Part shown: positions 1,114-62,252 of the stretch, in pieces | Layout: each line of letters opens with the position of its first letter | Position numbering within the stretch: position 1 is the first letter of the stretch | DNA from: Candidatus Yanofskybacteria bacterium RIFCSPLOWO2_02_FULL_41_13 | GTDB lineage: Bacteria > Patescibacteriota > Minisyncoccia > 2-02-FULL-40-12 > GWA2-44-9 | Assembly: GCA_001795735.1 (NCBI GenBank) | Contig: MGKQ01000001.1 | Location: 14,808-78,807, forward strand | Length of the DNA stretch: 64,000 nucleotides | Reading direction: 5' to 3' | Translations under genes and position numbers: made by a program | The notes under the pieces: generated by a model | Told to the model about the DNA's origin: nothing | Seen by the model: only the letters and a program-made list of their open reading frames with translations | Database searches by the model: none

Positions 1114-2715
1114 ATGACTATTAACTTTAATTCTCCGAACTACCTACCAAATTCAGAACAACGACTAGAGCATCTCCGTCGTATTATTAATGGACGCCCG
1201 GTAGCTATTTTGGTCGCCGGCCCTTCGATTAGTGAACTGGAAGAAAGGATCGGCGAACTCTCCCAAGCGGATATTTGTTACTTCGGAATGAACAATTTTT
1301 TTGTTCAGGAAAATCACATTTTAAAAAAAATAGGCAAACATTTTTCCTTATTGGTTGAAGCTGTCGACAACACCAATAAATCATTCTCTTTGGTCTTCAA
1401 TAGAATTATAGACTTTCTGGACAGAAGTGAGGACAATATGCTTGTTTCTTCCTTTACGAACTTTAAAATATCAGGCCCGAATTTTGATTTCCAAAAATTT
1501 TTGCATAAATATAACAATAAACTTCTTTCCCCCTGCGGCGTTTACGACAGGACCGTACCGAATGATGCCCAGCCCCTGCATCTTATACATGGTAACTCAC
1601 TCTCGTGGCTGATATATTTAGCTATTATCGGCAAAGCCTCCAAAATTAGCCTGTTTGGGGCAGACGGTTACACTAAAAACGAGAATACAAAAAAGACGTA
1701 TTACCGCTCTGAAGAATATGGCACAATGCCCCAGAAACAGCTTATGAATAATACCGATAAAGGCTTCAATCCGGTTGTTCCACTTTCATTACAAAATATT
1801 TATAAAACCTACGATCTTAAACCAATACCAATTTTAAATTGTTCTGAAGTTAGCTTTTTAACTCCCTTTCCGAAGGTCTCATATGATGACGCTTTTAATT
1901 TCCTGCTGGGCATAAAGCACACGCAAGAGATTTCTGATCTGCGTATTCCAACCGCCTCAATTATCATCCCAACCCCGGTAGATGATGAAAAACTAAAGAA
2001 TACTTTGAAAAATATTGCCGAACAGTCTTATTCAAATTACGAGACGGTTATCGTCCAAAAGAGTTCAGATTTCTTGGACGCCATGAAAAAAGCCATATCT
2101 TCGGCCAAGGGAAAATATGTTTTCTACTGTCCGCCGGACAACAGCTATCCGGATATTCATTGGATTAATTCTTGCTTAGAAATACTAGAGAACAGGCCCC
2201 AGATTTCCTTAGTCTGCGGTCTGCCTAAAAATACTGAACGGCCTTGGCCAAAGAAAAAGTTTATATATTACTGGCTCAAGAAAAAAAACTTCTTCCCGCC
2301 GAACATGCTCTGCGTCCGAAAGCAAGTTCTGGAAAAGTTTCTGCTCGAGACTGATATCGTCCGTGCAAATACAGAGTTTGAGAATTGGCTGAACTTTAGC
2401 TTATTTTTTAATATGAGCGGGTACTTGCCGGCTTTTATTCCGACAACTATCGCCAAGCATGATCGGACAAGTGAAGACGATGAATCACTAGATAATTACA
2501 GGCGCCAAGTTAATGACTATAAGAATCGTCTCATCTTTAAAAAGACATCGCATCATTTCAGAGACGGCGACGGCAATATCCTACCGGGCAAATTCTATCT
2601 AAGCATATTTTTACTTTATGGTTTAGCCGAGAAAGTTAACAGTAGGTTGCCTCTTTCCTTGCACACTTACTTAAATATTGCTAAAAATATAGTTAGAAAA
2701 TTTTATCAAAAATAA
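1114..2715 (+). CDS. two-domain protein: N-terminal DUF115/Maf-like (MptE-like) domain fused to a degenerate GT2-like glycosyltransferase domain
   Basis: N-terminal GRPVAILVAGPSISE...YFGMNNF pattern as in motility-accessory-factor/DUF115 proteins. C-terminal IIIPTPVDD...YETVIV resembles GT-A fold family 2. Confidence 0.5.
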   Translation: MTINFNSPNYLPNSEQRLEHLRRIINGRPVAILVAGPSISELEERIGELSQADICYFGMNNFFVQENHILKKIGKHFSLLVEAVDNTNKSFSLVFNRIIDFLDRSEDNMLVSSFTNFKISGPNFDFQKFLHKYNNKLLSPCGVYDRTVPNDAQPLHLIHGNSLSWLIYLAIIGKASKISLFGADGYTKNENTKKTYYRSEEYGTMPQKQLMNNTDKGFNPVVPLSLQNIYKTYDLKPIPILNCSEVSFLTPFPKVSYDDAFNFLLGIKHTQEISDLRIPTASIIIPTPVDDEKLKNTLKNIAEQSYSNYETVIVQKSSDFLDAMKKAISSAKGKYVFYCPPDNSYPDIHWINSCLEILENRPQISLVCGLPKNTERPWPKKKFIYYWLKKKNFFPPNMLCVRKQVLEKFLLETDIVRANTEFENWLNFSLFFNMSGYLPAFIPTTIAKHDRTSEDDESLDNYRRQVNDYKNRLIFKKTSHHFRDGDGNILPGKFYLSIFLLYGLAEKVNSRLPLSLHTYLNIAKNIVRKFYQK

Positions 2716-2780
2716 ATTAAAAGTGAATTTTAAAACACGTCATAAAAAACTTGTCAATAATTTAATTATCCACTTTTTGC

Positions 2781-2809
2781 TTGACACCTTTTGACACCTT
2801 TTGATACTG
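2781..2809 (+). promoter_or_regulatory. promoter-like motif TTGACACC-TTTTGACACC-TTTTGATACT (duplicated -35-like TTGACA, -10-like GATACT)
   Basis: Perfect TTGACA at 2781 and 2791, and GATACT 16 nt after the first. The same composite motif recurs at 23616 and 24789. Confidence 0.5.
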
Positions 2810-2844
2810 TTAATCTGGGTAAGTTATTCTTTCTATTTTTATAT

Positions 2845-2888
2845 TTACCTGTACGGCCCGCTATCATATAAGCGGGCCGTACAGGTAA
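2845..2888. promoter_or_regulatory. perfect 18-bp-arm palindrome (TTACCTGTACGGCCCGCT / AGCGGGCCGTACAGGTAA) with an 8-nt loop in the leader of the HTH gene. Candidate operator or stable 5'-UTR hairpin.
   Basis: Arms checked base by base. GC-rich core. Ends 16 nt before the ATG at 2904. No T-run follows. Confidence 0.55.
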
Positions 2889-2903
2889 TAAACCTTTTAA
2901 ATT

Positions 2904-3149
2904 ATGGCTGAAATTAATCCAAACGAAGTCTACACAACAAGCGAGGCTCAATCGCTTCTTAAGATCAGCAACAGCACTATAAAGCGCCTTCTAAAAAGAG
3001 GTGCCATCAAGGCTAATAAAATAGGAGGACAATATCGCGTCATGGGCAAAGAACTTTTGAGACTCCTGTCCCCCACCATAGAAAGACGGGCAGTAGAAAC
3101 CTATCAACGCTTAAAGAAAAAAGTTAAAAGAAAAATTAAAACCTGGTAA
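2904..3149 (+). CDS. small helix-turn-helix DNA-binding protein (excisionase/MerR-like HTH_17 family)
   Basis: SEAQSLLKISNSTIKRLLKRGAIKANKIGGQYRV is the characteristic excisionase-family HTH. Confidence 0.65.
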   Translation: MAEINPNEVYTTSEAQSLLKISNSTIKRLLKRGAIKANKIGGQYRVMGKELLRLLSPTIERRAVETYQRLKKKVKRKIKTW

Positions 3150-3191
3150 GTATTTGTCCGAGAGTGAAATGATCGGTAACAAATACTTACC
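3145..3191. repeat. 13-bp perfect inverted repeat (GGTAAGTATTTGT / ACAAATACTTACC) hairpin overlapping the stop of the HTH gene
   Basis: Seen in sequence. 21-nt loop containing a CCGA/TCGG mini-stem. No T-run. Confidence 0.5.
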
Positions 3192-3479
3192 CCCTCACTC
3201 GAAATATGTATTATTTTTATGTGTTAAAATCAGAAAAAGACAACAATCTATACTTTGGGTATACGAATAATATAAAACAGAGATTTGAGGATCATAACAA
3301 GGGCAAGGTGAGCTCAACGAAGAACAGAAGACCGTTAACCTTGCCCTATTATGAAGCATACGAGTCAGAGAAAGATGCCAGGAACAGAGAACTACAAATT
3401 AAACGTAGAGCAAAAGCTTTTATTAGCTTAAAGCGAAGGATCATATATAGCATTATCTAATTTATTTCGAGTGAGGGGG
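3190..3479. repeat. perfect 16-bp inverted repeats (CCCCCTCACTCGAAAT / ATTTCGAGTGAGGGGG) precisely bracketing the GIY-YIG ORF
   Basis: IR-L at 3190-3205 abuts the ATG at 3206. IR-R at 3464-3479 starts 4 nt after the stop. Confidence 0.6.
3206..3460 (+). CDS. GIY-YIG domain small protein (UPF0213/YhbQ-like)
   Basis: YFYVLKS...LYFGYTNNIKQRFEDHN matches the GIY-YIG motif. About 84 aa. Confidence 0.75.
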   Translation: MYYFYVLKSEKDNNLYFGYTNNIKQRFEDHNKGKVSSTKNRRPLTLPYYEAYESEKDARNRELQIKRRAKAFISLKRRIIYSII

Positions 3480-3567
3480 TGCTGATAATTACAGCTACTC
3501 GCTTTCAAGGCGAAGATTCACGGGGGGAACTTCCTGGGAATCGCCTCCGCTCGTAGGTAATTATCGC

Positions 3568-4569
3568 ATGATCATAACCCGAACACCCTTTAGAATATCT
3601 TTCTTCGGCGGAGGAACTGACTATCCAACCTGGTACAAAGAAAACGGCGGATCGGTTCTGTCTGCCGCCATAAACAAGTATTGTTACATCACGTGCCGGT
3701 ATTTACCGCCATTTTTTAAATATAAACACAGAATCGTATACAGCCAGATTGAATCAGTAGATAAAATAGACCACATAGATCATCCGTCTGTCAGGGAGAC
3801 GATACGCTTTCTTAATATTGATAAAGGGCTGGAGATACACCACGACGGAGATTTGCCGGCTATGTCCGGGCTGGGATCTAGCTCTTCTTTTACTGTCGGC
3901 CTGATAAATGCTATAAGCGCATTAAATGGCACGCTAAAAACCAAGAGAGAGGTGGCCATGAATGCAATTCATATTGAGCAAAATATGATAAAGGAGAATG
4001 TCGGTTCTCAGGATCAGACAGCAGCGGCTTTTGGCGGACTAAACCGGATAGATTTTGGAGGGGCTAAGGAAATATCGATCAAGCCTCTAGTATTGAGCCC
4101 CAATCGGCTTGAGTCTCTTCAAGACCACCTAATGCTATTCTTTACCGGCTTATCACGAGATGCTTCAAAGATCGCAAAAGAACAGGTAACAAACATTAAA
4201 AATAGGGGCACTGAATTGAAATTGATGCACAGATTAGTTGATGAAGGAGAGGCAATTTTAGCAAACAGCAGAAAGGGATTAGATGAATTTGGAAAACTTC
4301 TGAATGAGGGGTGGAAAATAAAAAAATCATTGTCGTCAAAAATAACAAATCCCTATATTGATGACGTATATAAAGCCGGAATACGAGCCGGAGCGTTAGG
4401 GGGCAAACTGCTTGGTGCGGGAGGGGGAGGATTTATTCTATTCTTTGCAAAACCAGAGACGCATGAAAAAATAAAAAGCAAATTAAAAAATTTGCTTTTT
4501 GTCCCTTTCCGGTTTGACCATCTTGGCAGCCGGATTATATATACCGGGAATGACTTTGAAAAGTTCTAG
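3568..4569 (+). CDS. GHMP-family sugar kinase (HddA/heptose-7-phosphate-kinase-like or other sugar-1-kinase)
   Basis: GHMP motif GDLPAMSGLGSSSSFTVGL and C-terminal LLGAGGGGFILFFA. Confidence 0.75.
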   Translation: MIITRTPFRISFFGGGTDYPTWYKENGGSVLSAAINKYCYITCRYLPPFFKYKHRIVYSQIESVDKIDHIDHPSVRETIRFLNIDKGLEIHHDGDLPAMSGLGSSSSFTVGLINAISALNGTLKTKREVAMNAIHIEQNMIKENVGSQDQTAAAFGGLNRIDFGGAKEISIKPLVLSPNRLESLQDHLMLFFTGLSRDASKIAKEQVTNIKNRGTELKLMHRLVDEGEAILANSRKGLDEFGKLLNEGWKIKKSLSSKITNPYIDDVYKAGIRAGALGGKLLGAGGGGFILFFAKPETHEKIKSKLKNLLFVPFRFDHLGSRIIYTGNDFEKF

Positions 4570-10674: not shown

Positions 10675-10959
10675 ATGAATCCCGAACGAGACAGCAAAAG
10701 CATATTTTATACATACGTACTAAGAAATGAGAATGGCCGTCTATATACAGGTTTTACTTATGACCTACGGAAACGCCTCAATGAACACAATGACAAAAAA
10801 TCAACATATACAAAATATCGAGGTCAATATGAGCTCATTTACTATGAAATGTGTCGAGATGAGAATGATGCTCGTCAAAGAAAAAAGTATCTTAAATCAG
10901 GCATGGGCAAACGCTACCTGAAAAACAGGTTGAGGCGTTTCCTGTCTCGTACGGGATGA
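10675..10959 (+). CDS. GIY-YIG domain small protein
   Basis: IFYTYVLRN...LYTGFTYDLRKRLNEHN. Confidence 0.75.
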   Translation: MNPERDSKSIFYTYVLRNENGRLYTGFTYDLRKRLNEHNDKKSTYTKYRGQYELIYYEMCRDENDARQRKKYLKSGMGKRYLKNRLRRFLSRTG

Positions 10960-17771: not shown

Positions 17772-17851
17772 ATCCCGTTAGAGGTCCGACTTGCCTAGAA
17801 GGCATGGTCAGCAGATGCACCACCAAGGGCGCATCTTACCTCTAACGGGAT
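17772..17851. mobile_element. divergent member of the CCCGTTAGA terminal-inverted-repeat element family (MITE-like or structured small RNA)
   Basis: 14-bp perfect IRs ATCCCGTTAGAGGT / ACCTCTAACGGGAT enclosing 52 nt with internal hairpins. TIR sequence is related to the elements at 51486 and 61162. Confidence 0.5.
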
Positions 17852-46871: not shown

Positions 46872-47183
46872 TCAACTTCCAGAGCCAAACGCTTTGGTGC
46901 GTCTGTACTCTTTAAGCCTTAGACTTAAAAATATCCTACCCCTTGTCGTTTTAAGATAACCTTCTCTGCGTTTGGCATCTTGCTCATTAGTACAGCCTTC
47001 AAAATATATTAGCTTGAATGGTAACCTGAACTTTGTACTGAAATTGAAGCCTTTATTATGTTCATCTATTCTTCTGCGCAGGTTATTTGTGTAACCAATG
47101 TATAACCTATCGTCCTTGATACTTTGTAGCACATAGATATAGAAGAACATGCTGGAAGCTGTATTACTGGGCATGTGATTCAT
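46872..47183 (-). CDS. GIY-YIG domain small protein
   Basis: FFYIYVLQS...LYIGYTNNLRRRIDEHNKG. Confidence 0.75.
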   Translation of the reverse strand: MNHMPSNTASSMFFYIYVLQSIKDDRLYIGYTNNLRRRIDEHNKGFNFSTKFRLPFKLIYFEGCTNEQDAKRREGYLKTTRGRIFLSLRLKEYRRTKAFGSGS

Positions 47184-48033
47184 TTAGTAAAGTTAGTTCT
47201 TCCTCCCAATTATAATTTCCCCAATTTTTATATTTTTTTCTTAGTTCATCGTTCTCATGTCCGGGATGACAACCAAGTTCTATAATTTTATCTGGATATT
47301 TTTTCAATAACTCTTTTGCTGACTTGATGTCTCTATCGCTCAAATTTCCGGCATTAACAAAACCGACGGAAAAATCGTTGCAAACAAGGCCAGCCTTTCT
47401 TACTTTTCTTTTTGCTATCGCCGACAAAAAGTTTAGAAACAACAGTTGAAGTTTTCTAAATAATTTGCCACCCAAAAAGCTAAACGGTTCATTTACGATA
47501 CGAATGTATGGAATCTGGCGTTCCTTGGCCAGCTTAACAACAATTTCTGTAATTCCCGGTAGCAGATGTAAATGCTGATGGCTATTTATGAAAGATAGTT
47601 TGATACCGGCTTGAATGCACTTATTTAACTGAGCCCTTAGTTCCGCCTCCACTTTTTTGAGACTAATTAATCCTAAAATATATTTGATGAAAAATATCCT
47701 GTGGTTTTTAGGAAAAACGGTCTGAGTAATGGGTCTCTCCTCAACCAAAACCAGATGTATCCCGTACGAAGTCTCGCTCGCGCTAAGAGCACGAGTCCTT
47801 TGGACCTCGGCGAGGCTACTTCGTACGGGATGAACCCCGATGTTTGGAAGTTCAACTTCCAAACATCGGTGGACGGCATCATCAAAAGCCGGACCATTAG
47901 CCATCAGAGAGGCACCGTCTATCTTGGCTCCTTTTAATAAAAAAATGATTCCATCGTTAATGGATTTGTTAAGACCGAGATCGTCAGCAATAATCCTCAA
48001 GTTACCAATTCCCAAGTTACGACTTACAATCAA
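47164..48033 (-). CDS. YdjC/ChbG-family carbohydrate deacetylase (NaxD/HpnK-like)
   Basis: N-terminal IIADDLGLNKSINDGI and overall YdjC-like pattern. TTG start. Confidence 0.65.
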   Translation of the reverse strand: MIVSRNLGIGNLRIIADDLGLNKSINDGIIFLLKGAKIDGASLMANGPAFDDAVHRCLEVELPNIGVHPVRSSLAEVQRTRALSASETSYGIHLVLVEERPITQTVFPKNHRIFFIKYILGLISLKKVEAELRAQLNKCIQAGIKLSFINSHQHLHLLPGITEIVVKLAKERQIPYIRIVNEPFSFLGGKLFRKLQLLFLNFLSAIAKRKVRKAGLVCNDFSVGFVNAGNLSDRDIKSAKELLKKYPDKIIELGCHPGHENDELRKKYKNWGNYNWEEELTLLNESHAQ

Positions 48034-60932: not shown

Positions 60933-62252
60933 TTAAAACTTTAGAATTATACTTTTCTTCCACCAATTTCCTGCCGTTTGCCCCTAATTCAGTTAAAAGC
61001 TCTGGATGGTCTATTAAGTATAATATCTTTTCGGCCAGCGCTCTAAAATCGCCCTCGTTTACAAGGAATCCGTTATAGCCATCCCCCACCTGATCAGGAA
61101 GACCGCTGTGTCTTGTAGTAATGACAGGCAACCCGGTAGCTAAAGCTTGTGAAATAATTACATTCATCCCGTTAGAAGTAGTGCAAGGCACCCACTACCA
61201 CCGTACGGTGCCATACATTACTAATTATTGTTTGATTGACATTCATGTTATTTAACCCGCTTAGAGTACTTCTAACGGGATTCATATTATTCAGTATCTC
61301 CATCCTTGGCCGTTTTTGACGGCTGAACAAAGAAGCTCATATTCTGGAAAAAATCTAATATCCGTTCTATTGCCATAAATCCTTTAAACTCCACAACGTC
61401 ATTCAAGCCCAATGTTCCCGCTAAAGAATGGATTTTTTCTCTCAACGGCCCGTCTCCAATCATATAGCACCTGAATTTTTTTGAGGTCTTTTCTTTGACA
61501 ATGGCCAGAGCGCGCAAGAGGTCGTCAAAACCTTTTTTCTCCACAAATCTGCCGACCGAAACAATATTTATTTCTTTATTCTCGGATATCGCCCTCTCCT
61601 TAAAATTATAGTTATCCAAGTTTATGCCAATGGGATGAACCAGTACTTTTTCTGAAGAAAATCCGTGTCCTACTACCCTTCGCTTCATGTCCTCAGACAT
61701 AACGAAGAACAAAGCTGATTCTTCTATTAATCCCCGATAGATAGCAATCCCTTTTTCTTTTATTCTTTTACTGACATCCTGGCCGTAAAGTGAAGTGATA
61801 AATTTTTCCTTAATACCCAAAACTTTTTTTATCATGACAAAGTTAGACCCGACATTGCCAAAGTGACAATGATACAAATCGTATTTTTTACCGAAAAAAG
61901 GCTTTAAATCCCAGAACAAAACTTTAAAATTAGATGCAATTTTAAAAATAGATGCCGGCCTATAGAGTAACAGTCTGACTAACCGAGGTCCAGCCATAAT
62001 AATTCTCAGTATTTTGTTAGCCGGAACGCTAAGATACATTGTCTTTTTGTCTAACCCGTATTGAAAATACCTCTTGGATATATGGTCCTTGTTCGCCCCG
62101 CCTCGATTAAAGGCGTAAATCTCAACCCCGACCCCCCGGTCGATCAGATCACAAGCCTGATCAATAATAAAAGTTTCGGATATTTCCGGAAAACTGCCTA
62201 CAATAAAGGCGACTCTTAAGTTTTGCTTTTTATTTATATTAACTGAACTCAT
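60889..62252 (-). pseudogene. GT4 glycosyltransferase split into an N-terminal fragment (61287..62252) and a C-terminal fragment (60889..61167) by insertion of the roughly 125-bp repeat element
   Basis: N-fragment ends ...FVQPSKTAKDGDTE-stop. C-fragment resumes GMNVIISQALATGLPVITT. Together they rebuild the conserved GT4 E-G-x-G...EAMA-G-PVI core. Confidence 0.55.
61162..61292. mobile_element. roughly 125-bp terminal-inverted-repeat element, copy B (MITE-like), inserted in a GT4 gene
   Basis: Aligns end to end with copy A (TCATCCCGTTAGAAGTAGTGCAAGGCACCCACTACCACC ... TTTAACCCGCTTAGAGTACTTCTAACGGGATTCAT). Contains the 12-bp perfect palindrome CACCGTACGGTG. Confidence 0.65.

Follow-up and report, generated by a model that had tools for sequence, protein, structure and literature searches.

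Hairpin-bracketed GIY-YIG nuclease genes in Candidatus Yanofskybacteria and its relatives: a probable family of very small selfish elements

In a 64,000-nucleotide (nt) stretch of DNA from Candidatus Yanofskybacteria bacterium RIFCSPLOWO2_02_FULL_41_13 (assembly GCA_001795735.1, contig MGKQ01000001.1, positions 14,808 to 78,807 of the forward strand; hereafter, the window), a small open reading frame (ORF) for a GIY-YIG protein is enclosed by a long perfect inverted repeat (IR) between a helix-turn-helix (HTH) gene and a GHMP-kinase gene. An earlier inspection of the letters alone (the sequence-only reading) had proposed either a mobile or selfish GIY-YIG cassette or an mRNA structure sequestering the whole ORF. 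As described below, the IR in the window is probably one copy of a family of selfish, transposon-like hairpin elements that carry a GIY-YIG nuclease in the loop and occur across the candidate phyla radiation (CPR)/Patescibacteria. The locus is composed of the following features, with positions being those of the window:

2904-3149: HTH_17/excisionase-type gene of 81 amino acids, upstream of the cassette
3145-3191, + strand: H1, the left flanking hairpin, with a perfect 13-bp stem (3145-3157 / 3179-3191) and a 21-nt loop
3150-3567, + strand: block of 418 nt that is extra relative to the orthologous empty site, i.e., the remainder of H1, IR, ORF, IR, and H3
3189-3206, + strand: left IR arm, ACCCCCTCACTCGAAATA, which holds the family core ACCCCC(W)CAC and the final base of which is the A of the start codon
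3206-3460, + strand: GIY-YIG ORF of 84 amino acids, single-domain, the start codon of which abuts the stem
3463-3480, + strand: right IR arm, TATTTCGAGTGAGGGGGT, which begins 3 nt past the TAA stop codon (3458-3460)
3481-3567, + strand: H3, the right flanking hairpin, long and imperfect, with the outer stem GCTGATAATTAC / GTAATTATCGC

The IR was found to be a perfect repeat of 18 bp by a repeat finder and also by reading of the positions 2400-4300. The sequence-only reading was hence right in bracketing the ORF at its start and stop, but the length of 16 bp given there falls short, the right arm begins 3 nt and not 4 nt past the stop codon, and the left arm includes the A of the ATG. In 1640 length-matched random intervals from related loci, perfect bracketing IRs reached 13 bp at most. 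A search for the 16-mer, made within the 64-kb window, hit the two IR arms only, and the other two small GIY-YIG ORFs in the window (10675-10959, + strand, and 46872-47183, - strand) indeed have no bracketing IR, as had been stated; the best repeats around them are only 5-6 bp.

On the left, the IR overlaps by 2-3 nt with H1, the perfect 13-bp hairpin of which had already been described and does span the stop codon of the HTH gene (3147-3149). The first 5 nt of H1 (GGTAA) belong to the host, being the remainder of a Trp codon of the HTH gene and its TAA stop codon, and TGGTAA is kept in the orthologs with an empty site, L129 and L130 (L-numbers denote the loci from other genomes or contigs used for comparison). 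On the right, the imperfect pair GATAATTAC/GTAATTATC (3484-3492 / 3557-3565), which had also been noticed in front of the next gene, turned out to be the outer stem of H3, and the ATG of the GHMP-kinase gene is at 3568, one base past the end of H3. When the region of 3130-3580 was folded as RNA, H1, the IR stem, and H3 adjoined without a spacer as three helices, and the folding energy was -127.1 kcal/mol as compared with -92.7 +/- 5.9 kcal/mol for shuffled sequences (z = -5.9). In a scan for terminators and promoters, neither a terminator-like site nor a U-tract was found at the locus; the ORF has no Shine-Dalgarno (SD) sequence and no convincing promoter of its own, and promoter-like sites were found only upstream of the HTH gene, in a number about that in shuffled sequences. 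Furthermore, no Rfam family reached the gathering score in the whole window, nothing meaningful was hit at E <= 10 in 2800-3650, and the window has no tRNA or tmRNA genes.

Seven contigs encode exactly the same protein (Candidatus Yanofskybacteria, Parcubacteria, CPR; Rifle aquifer), but within the 1 kb that was compared (2701-3700) they do not differ from the window at any position (100% identity), and the comparison thus needed more distant relatives. The closest homologs found of the GHMP kinase are those in L129, L130, and L131, which are from related genomes. In L129 (Yanofskybacteria, GCA_016181145.1), the order of methyltransferase, glycosyltransferase, HTH, and kinase genes is the same and the kinase is 87% identical, but the junction reads ...CTGGTAA TTT ATG... 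with only 3 nt between the stop and start codons, as compared with 418 nt in the window. L130 and L131 (kinase 82% identical) likewise have no element. These alignments indicate that the HTH and kinase genes were formerly adjacent and that the element in the window was inserted as a single block, after the stop codon of the first gene and before the start codon of the second. The sequence-only reading had reckoned with orthologous loci carrying the same ORF without flanking IRs, and the opposite was found; namely, the relatives carry the IR, and the closest syntenic loci are devoid of the whole element. Its idea of a cassette is hence supported, but the IR is not the outermost boundary of that cassette, because the extra block of 418 nt includes H1 and H3 and the IR lies inside it. 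At the edges of this block is an imperfect 9-nt direct repeat, GGTAAGTAT (3145-3153) / GGTAATTAT (3556-3564), which may be a target duplication, microhomology, or coincidence.

To see the IR as a feature of a family, we scanned one genome per species with an alignment of nine sequences and obtained another 80 loci, almost all of them in CPR/Patescibacteria; 24 loci were added by searching metagenomes for the window-type arms. The ORF is bracketed by a perfect IR of 10 bp or more in 59 of 81 loci, as compared with 0.6% of the 1640 control intervals, and by one of 12 bp or more in 54 of 81 loci (0.06% of the control intervals). Close relatives in L008, L009, L010, and L011, with 71-83% amino-acid identity to the ORF in the window, are found in differing locations and have the same arms:

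L008: after a DJ-1 gene, with window-type arms
L009: between ORFs of unknown identity, with window-type arms and one compensated change, CCCTCTCAC/GTGAGAGGG
L010 and L011: between HIT and rpsU, with window-type arms

Indeed, the IR core is the same in the window, L008, and L010, while the synonymous sites of the ORF are saturated (proportion of synonymous differences, pS, about 0.9-0.96; proportion of nonsynonymous differences, pN, about 0.10-0.13), and the window-type copies are found in at least 21 different flanking contexts. The arms of the family hairpins often take in the start codon as well as the last codons and the stop codon of the ORF. While the outer core ACCCCC(A/T)CAC ... GTG(T/A)GGGGGT is conserved, the inner part varies among lineages and stays complementary (43-46 loci). 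When the arms were anchored on their sequence cores only, the inner positions 9-20 were Watson-Crick paired in 80% of the cells, as compared with 40% after the right arms were dealt to other loci (500 permutations, maximum 50%). Changes were on both sides in 16 of 22 pairs, and the covariation score was 0.528, as compared with 0.173 in shuffled arms (reached in 0 of 500) and 0.07-0.18 in slid registers.

Typical cassettes were also found in a few metagenome-assembled genomes (MAGs) labelled Gammaproteobacteria, Bdellovibrionales, Planctomycetia, Omnitrophota, and Cloacimonadota (loci within L026-L098), which could be errors of binning or labelling or a genuine spread beyond CPR. No relatives were found in viral contigs, and there is thus no evidence for carriage by phages. 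Our full-text searches of the literature found no description of a hairpin-bracketed GIY-YIG cassette; this family of very small elements in CPR/Patescibacteria is previously undescribed.

The movement of the element is evident from its presence and absence at orthologous sites, its many contexts, 4-bp duplications, and ORF-less derivatives in relatives. The 4 nt just outside the C-run and the G-run are identical to each other in 16 of 58 elements with the family core, as compared with 2.6 expected (2000 permutations, maximum 8); longer flanking direct repeats are enriched in a subset of loci but heterogeneous, and the clean signal is the 4-nt repeat. In L070, furthermore, a 71-nt ORF-less element (1579-1649) is absent from the orthologous spacer in L082, and CTTG occurs once at the empty site in L082 but on both sides of the insert in L070, a 4-bp target duplication. 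Since an ORF-less element has such a filled/empty pair, the hairpin as a whole is mobile. The junction between HIT and rpsU is filled in L010 and L011 and has no GIY-YIG ORF in L123, L125, and a third contig; L123 and, faintly, L125 nonetheless retain H3-like hairpin sequence there and are therefore ORF-less remnants rather than clean empty sites. We found 13 ORF-less pairs of arms with the family core (26-170 nt) among the fetched loci, one copy with an internally deleted ORF (L088, 1117-1286), and, in L066, an ORF that lies between two complete ORF-less hairpin elements. Two IR-bracketed loci came from each of four MAGs, and the 64-kb window holds one copy.

The contig L121 has two copies that are 1.7 kb apart and differ by one mismatch in about 300 nt. 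Their tract of identity has its limits exactly at the outer ends of the two arms, TTACCCCC to GGGGGTGC (TTACCCCCTCAC to GTGAGGGGGTGC); beyond these, the flanking hairpins are about 80% similar on the left and unrelated on the right. L112, with a single cassette, is a recombinant in which the left flank is that of one of the L121 copies and the right flank that of the second; recombination between cassette copies has thus deleted or duplicated about 1.7 kb with two ORFs (349 and 126 codons). This tract from arm to arm, the same IR in unrelated contexts, and the three loci with the closest kinases but no element all support the mobile or selfish cassette that the sequence-only reading had proposed.

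Several insertions are in or beside RNA genes, the positions of which were taken from Rfam annotation of the loci. In L047 and L087, the cassette is inside the 16S rRNA gene, where it takes the place of the helix 6 tip and the helix is lengthened by the arms, as seen in the alignment with the 16S rRNA of L082 with a short helix. The cassette is in the 16S-tRNA spacer in L070 and L082, touching the 5' end of the tRNA, and it also touches tRNA 5' ends in L041, L088, and L093 and tRNA 3' ends in L042 and L080. In L049, the cassette apparently interrupts RNase P RNA, given that the cassette closely follows the conserved P4 strand GGAAAGTCCG and precedes the remainder of the ribozyme; the Rfam alignment there is limited to the 3' part of the RNase P model. 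At four tRNA 5' ends, the terminal G-run of the element and the duplicated 4 nt restore the first bases of the tRNA, and insertions at tRNA ends survive because the start of the tRNA is rebuilt in this way. In L070/L082, L088, and L093, namely, the G-run with the duplicated CGCG, CGTG, and CCAG recreates the first 7-9 nt of the tRNA, so that the tRNA gene is intact in one copy after an insertion inside it, a short 5' fragment being left upstream; L088 also has a duplicated 29-nt piece of the tRNA 5' end. The adjacent RNA genes are co-directional with the element in all of 13 cases, and so is the upstream long ORF in 35 of 38 loci.

The ends of the element are built alike. In the window-type subfamily, H1 has three tiers, i.e., an outer stem, a TTGTC junction, and an inner stem with the apex CGAGC..GCGAA, and the left end can be aligned with the reverse-complemented right end over about 75 nt with the same hairpin design; indeed, the reverse complement of H3 bears the H1-type apex CGAGCGGAGGCGA. 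The terminal inverted repeats of the element are hence long and internally structured, and the 18-bp IR makes up their innermost portion. This suggests that both ends would be recognized as DNA, because the same motifs are on opposite strands at the two ends, whereas the motifs differ on a single RNA strand. Mismatches within the arms are 10 G.T, 7 A.C, and 15 others, with no sense-strand bias to pairs compatible with G.U. In L123, hairpins nearly identical to H3 of the window are present twice upstream of rpsU without an ORF, and the flanking hairpins are therefore semi-independent modules. In most of the window-type copies with both flanks readable, H1 takes in the upstream stop codon with its first base pairs, and the ATG of the downstream gene comes after the last pair of H3; L023 and L025 are exceptions with no ATG directly after H3. 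In L025 (about 3262-3340), an ATG is inside H3, and its frame runs into a pilin-like N-terminus (..SAG|FTLIELLV), so that the element appears to supply the leader peptide and the start codon of a prepilin-type gene. The stems of the flanking hairpins also reach into host sequence (GGTAA at the left junction in the window), which may hint at base-pairing in the choice of targets.

The product of the ORF matches the Pfam family PF01541 (GIY-YIG) with 59.6 bits against a cut-off of 22.6 (E = 3.7e-16), and ORFs of the family are 84-86 amino acids in size. An AlphaFold2 model (pLDDT 94.6) has the topology b1-b2-a1-b3-a2, i.e., a bare GIY-YIG core with a long basic C-terminal helix, and the best structural matches in the PDB by Foldseek were the UPF0213 protein BH0048, the nuclease domain of Slx1 (root mean square deviation of 2.1 Å over 70 columns), I-TevI, and the N-domain of UvrC. 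Eight residues (Y5, Y16, G18, R26, H30, N31, E50, and E62) are invariant in 25 homologs, and we assign putative catalytic roles to them. Purifying selection on the nuclease is indicated by pN of 0.10-0.15 against pS of 0.6-0.99 (saturated) and by the ratio of nonsynonymous to synonymous substitution rates (dN/dS) of about 0.1 for the sole calculable pair. While the fold is that of homing endonucleases, as had been remarked, the protein is not a classical homing endonuclease, an intron, an additional DNA-binding domain, and a fixed target gene all being absent. This GIY-YIG domain is the sole ORF in the element, where no recognised transposase (DDE, HUH, serine or tyrosine recombinase) is present. 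The two other small GIY-YIG ORFs in the window are 35% (10675-10959) and 44% (46872-47183) identical to the first and wedged between or overlapping polysaccharide-synthesis genes; the ORF of 10675-10959 has a perfect 13-bp IR (10769-10781 / 10930-10942) inside its coding sequence.

A single-domain GIY-YIG nuclease for single-stranded DNA (ssDNA), SsnA (CDD cd10448), the gene of which has hairpin-repeat flanks in a layout called insertion sequence (IS)-like, was described by Chenal et al. 2025 (Nat Commun, PMC11893778), CPR being outside the coverage of that study. As a reference, we took SsnA (94 amino acids) from a record of N. gonorrhoeae via tblastn and confirmed it by its NTS flanks; seven exact NTS repeats are within 1.6 kb at this ssnA, and an inverted NTS pair brackets the gene. 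The CPR protein is 30% identical to SsnA of N. gonorrhoeae (hhalign, E = 1.7e-10, probability 96.9%) and 40% identical to YazA of B. subtilis, a UPF0213 protein (hhalign, E = 9.5e-16), and it is therefore closer to UPF0213/YazA than to SsnA. The consensus called SRM, HGTCWYN(0-2)YYVSBRHN(0-5)WNVSBRGN(0-2)RNCYNB, had no match on either strand in 3001-3700 and one match in the whole window.

These observations lead us to favor, with some confidence, a selfish hairpin element that has a core module of about 290 bp and amounts to about 420 bp with the flanking hairpins at the locus in the window. In the mechanism that we propose, the two arms would pair with each other and hold the stand-alone nuclease gene as the sole gene in the hairpin loop, and the element's own nuclease, which is kin to structure- or hairpin-specific GIY-YIG enzymes (Slx1 and SsnA), would recognize the conserved arm/hairpin junction at both ends as DNA, on opposite strands, probably while the arms are extruded or single-stranded. 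Cuts by the nuclease at or beside ACCCCCTCAC would start copying or transposition, and host functions would finish the joining. With no promoter or SD sequence of its own, the nuclease gene would be expressed from read-through transcripts of the host, which fits the co-directional neighbors described above. In RNA, the arms, H1, and H3 would form three abutting helices that tuck the insert away and rejoin the stop and start codons of its neighbors, and such a fold would account for the tolerance of the element between coupled genes, in 16S rRNA, in RNase P RNA, and at tRNA flanks; it is also a plausible reason for the perfect pairing. An mRNA stem sequestering the ORF, the second proposal of the sequence-only reading, probably coexists with mobility, because the element is nearly always co-directional with host transcripts and is found inside structured RNA genes. 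A stronger claim, which we put forward only as a tentative possibility, is that these are autonomous prokaryotic DNA transposons with hairpin ends and 4-bp duplications, in which the 84-amino-acid GIY-YIG nuclease is the only protein; they would then represent a new class of transposition enzyme in bacteria and, with about 290 bp, the smallest known autonomous mobile element.

Several points weigh against this reading of a selfish element moved by its own nuclease. GIY-YIG enzymes are not known to catalyse strand transfer, and the chemistry of insertion is thus conjecture; the link between the nuclease and the arms is, furthermore, what we infer from the sequences. The covariation of the arms would also be expected if both ends merely match the specificity of one protein, and their pairing, as DNA or RNA, is deduced from the perfection and length of the repeat. 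About one-fourth of the related ORFs have no IR, and the 64-kb window has a single copy of the IR. In the window-type subfamily, no 4-bp duplication is directly outside the arms, where the flanks are conserved as TTA|..|TGC, and the right copy of the 9-mer at the window locus also belongs to a hairpin seen elsewhere (L123) and is possibly intrinsic to the element. Also, the pair of copies in L121 could be due to gene conversion between nearby paralogs instead of transposition.

Among the alternatives, hairpin homing survives best, although we consider it unlikely. The ORF-less hairpins would then be the primary dispersed repeat; the nuclease would cut them, and its gene would be copied into the loop by break repair with the arms and flanking hairpins as homology. 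The enzyme would thus be a free-standing homing endonuclease that targets a repeat, with no transposition of the whole hairpin. Minimal hairpins of 26-29 nt with the family arms do exist (L098, 2409-2434; L036, 2575-2601; L011, 6821-6848), the ORF in L066 lies between two complete hairpins of this ORF-less kind, and L123 retains H1/H3-like hairpins without an ORF where L010 and L011 are filled. The tract of identity in L121, which stops at the arms and leaves the left flanks only about 80% similar, fits the copying into a related site as well. What speaks for the mobile hairpin instead is that the 71-nt ORF-less element is itself filled/empty with a 4-bp duplication, that the empty site of the window (TAA-TTT-ATG) has no hairpin to be cut, and that the deleted copy in L088 (1117-1286) tells that some of the short forms come from long ones; arms of about 20 bp are, moreover, short for recombinational repair.

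Somewhat more doubtful still is a role in RNA only, where the IR would be a double-stranded RNA stem that silences the start codon of a toxic nuclease or is excised by RNase III like the intervening sequences (IVSs) of 23S rRNA, with no role in the mobility of DNA. RNase III processing of hairpin-type miniature inverted-repeat transposable elements (MITEs), i.e., Correia elements, in the mRNAs of Neisseria is a precedent for such a role. The start codon abutting or inside the stem, the lack of an SD sequence, the very stable predicted fold (z = -5.9), the invariable co-direction with adjacent RNA genes, and the cassettes at the tips of 16S helices and apparently in RNase P RNA, where a basal stem is needed for a functional host RNA, are all in line with it. 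Also in line is the report by Tsurumaki et al. 2024 (PMC11270868) that GIY-YIG ORFs in CPR rRNA genes are not in group I/II introns, in which IVSs of the RNase III type were suggested separately for short non-intron insertions. A mere stem, however, needs no conserved outer core sequence, and the two ends mirror each other over about 75 nt including the apex motifs, so that they are one motif as DNA but differing motifs as RNA. Neither the arm mismatches, in which pairs compatible with G.U are not in excess on the sense strand, nor the ORF-less copies, which retain the arms and have target duplications, are those expected from selection on RNA alone.

It is improbable that the protein is a domesticated host nuclease of the Ssn type, for example for the control of incoming ssDNA, and that the repeats are its regulatory or recognition sites rather than the ends of a mobile element. 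Such a system is known, as SsnA is a hairpin-specific ssDNA nuclease that modulates transformation and has its gene flanked by the target repeats (Chenal et al. 2025, PMC11893778); the ssnA that we recovered from N. gonorrhoeae is indeed bracketed by an inverted NTS pair, and the CPR protein is homologous to SsnA. The behavior is nonetheless that of a selfish element, with presence and absence at orthologous sites, at least 21 contexts, insertions in rRNA genes, several copies in a genome or contig, and copies in decay; no SRM consensus is present, UPF0213/YazA is the closer match of the protein, and the IR motif is not dispersed across the 64-kb window. Finally, a coincidental or local structure, i.e., a terminator or attenuator that encloses a small ORF between the HTH and kinase genes, would suit an intergenic position between co-directional genes and hairpins abutting the stop and start codons, but it is already refuted by the same IR around homologous ORFs in dozens of unrelated loci and by the empty orthologous junctions in L129-L131, with no U-tract or terminator-like site at the locus.

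Three other identities were rejected: an integron cassette (attC on one side only and no integrase), an intrinsic terminator (no U-tract), and a group I intron, for which no core was found at the Rfam gathering score in the window or at E <= 10 in 2800-3650, with the reservation that a 256-nt ORF in the stem can mask a core from covariance models and that the non-ORF part is only about 165 nt.

The selfish hairpin element resembles the Ssn/NTS system in that both have stand-alone single-domain GIY-YIG proteins of about 90 amino acids, which are homologous to each other, and in that the gene has inverted hairpin repeats on both sides, the conserved and oriented tails of which point towards it. 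The CPR arms, however, pair across the gene and leave it in the loop, whereas the NTS repeats are two self-contained hairpins; mobility is seen for the CPR element (filled/empty sites, duplications, and rRNA insertions) but has been shown for no ssnA, and the CPR motif does not occur in hundreds of dispersed copies in the available sequence, nor is the SRM consensus present. The UPF0213 proteins YazA and YhbQ (PDB 1zg2 and 1ywl; related to the Slx1 nuclease domain) are the best matches in sequence and fold and have the same size with a single domain, but yazA of B. subtilis is in a fixed housekeeping operon (trmNF-yazA-rsmI), overlapping its neighbors, where it lacks a bracketing IR and gives no sign of mobility. 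While homologous to both SsnA and UPF0213, the CPR proteins thus behave like neither resident gene.

GIY-YIG ORFs in insertions of CPR rRNA genes were reported as non-intron, compared with IVSs, and judged to be "outside the context of homing" (Tsurumaki et al. 2024, PMC11270868). The insertions in L047 and L087 are alike in being non-intron, at the tip of a 16S helix, and with a GIY-YIG ORF and an IVS-like basal stem; a bracketing IR, spread beyond rRNA, ORF-less derivatives, and target duplications are not in that report, and the copy in the window is in an mRNA operon. I-TevI and Seg homing endonucleases share with our element a selfish GIY-YIG gene of the same catalytic fold, inserted between or within host genes, but the CPR element has no DNA-binding domain (84 amino acids in total) and no group I intron and is instead found at many unrelated sites with a bracketing IR. 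REP/RAYT, IS200/IS605, and MITEs (Correia and Rickettsia palindromic elements) likewise have a small gene between inverted hairpin repeats and scattered ORF-less palindromic derivatives; their DNA hairpins are probably recognition elements, and their insertions are tolerated in transcripts and genes. Unlike REP/RAYT and IS200/IS605, the enzyme of the CPR element is GIY-YIG and neither HUH nor DDE, and the element is far smaller (about 0.3-0.4 kb); IS200/IS605 also makes no target duplication, unlike the 4-bp duplications in CPR.

A single odd IR thus becomes a defined family across CPR/Patescibacteria, a hairpin with a nuclease gene in its loop, which offers an explanation of the non-intron GIY-YIG insertions in CPR rRNA genes and supplies the evidence of mobility that the work on Ssn could only suggest for hairpin-flanked stand-alone GIY-YIG genes. 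The family also provides many natural pairs of arms and enzyme for tests of cleavage specificity of a minimal 84-amino-acid nuclease, which is of practical interest for ssDNA tools; if it is true that the nuclease alone drives insertion, it would be a new enzyme class in prokaryotic transposition. Streamlined genomes with almost no intergenic space could, moreover, host selfish DNA by having the insert folded aside.

Some further observations are related to the ORF family or to other small repeats. A subfamily of the same ORF with no IR (L071, L075, and L091; ORF at 1203 or 3001; 90-101 amino acids) starts right after the 3' end of a tRNA, and 17 nt of that end are repeated behind the ORF (e.g., AATCCCGATGGGACCGC); this target pattern is of another, integrase-like kind. 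As compared with L129, a second block, of about 88 nt (2814-2901), is extra in the window and lies between repeated TTGACACCTTTTGA promoter-like boxes and the HTH start; it holds a perfect 18-bp hairpin (2845-2862 / 2871-2888) with the ends TTACC..GGTAA, and CTGGGTAAGTTATT at 2814 is similar to CTGGTAAGTATTT at 3141. This block may have come from a hairpin insertion as well.

Hairpin repeats of a second family, ATCCCGTWMGARGT ... ACYTCKWACGGGAT, are present three times in the window (17772-17851, 47759-47831, and 61156-61291). When the orthologous 16S-tRNA spacers of L070 and L082 are compared, a kindred element of about 105 nt (CCCCATTAGAGAT..ATCTCTAACGGGG; L070, about 1448-1552) is seen as an indel. 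Several families of MITE-like hairpins thus seem to be present in CPR genomes. Beside an ATCCCGT.. hairpin in the window, a perfect 16-bp palindrome with a 1-nt center, CCGATGTTTGGAAGTT/AACTTCCAAACATCGG (47837-47869), lies in or beside the ORF of 47164-48033. Also, small genes of the 23S_rRNA_IVP/bAvd family, which is typical of rRNA intervening sequences, are found among housekeeping genes near the HIT-rpsU loci (L011, 1667-2029; L125, 5708-5986; L126, 5708-5956) and may be another class of travelling small ORFs in CPR genomes.

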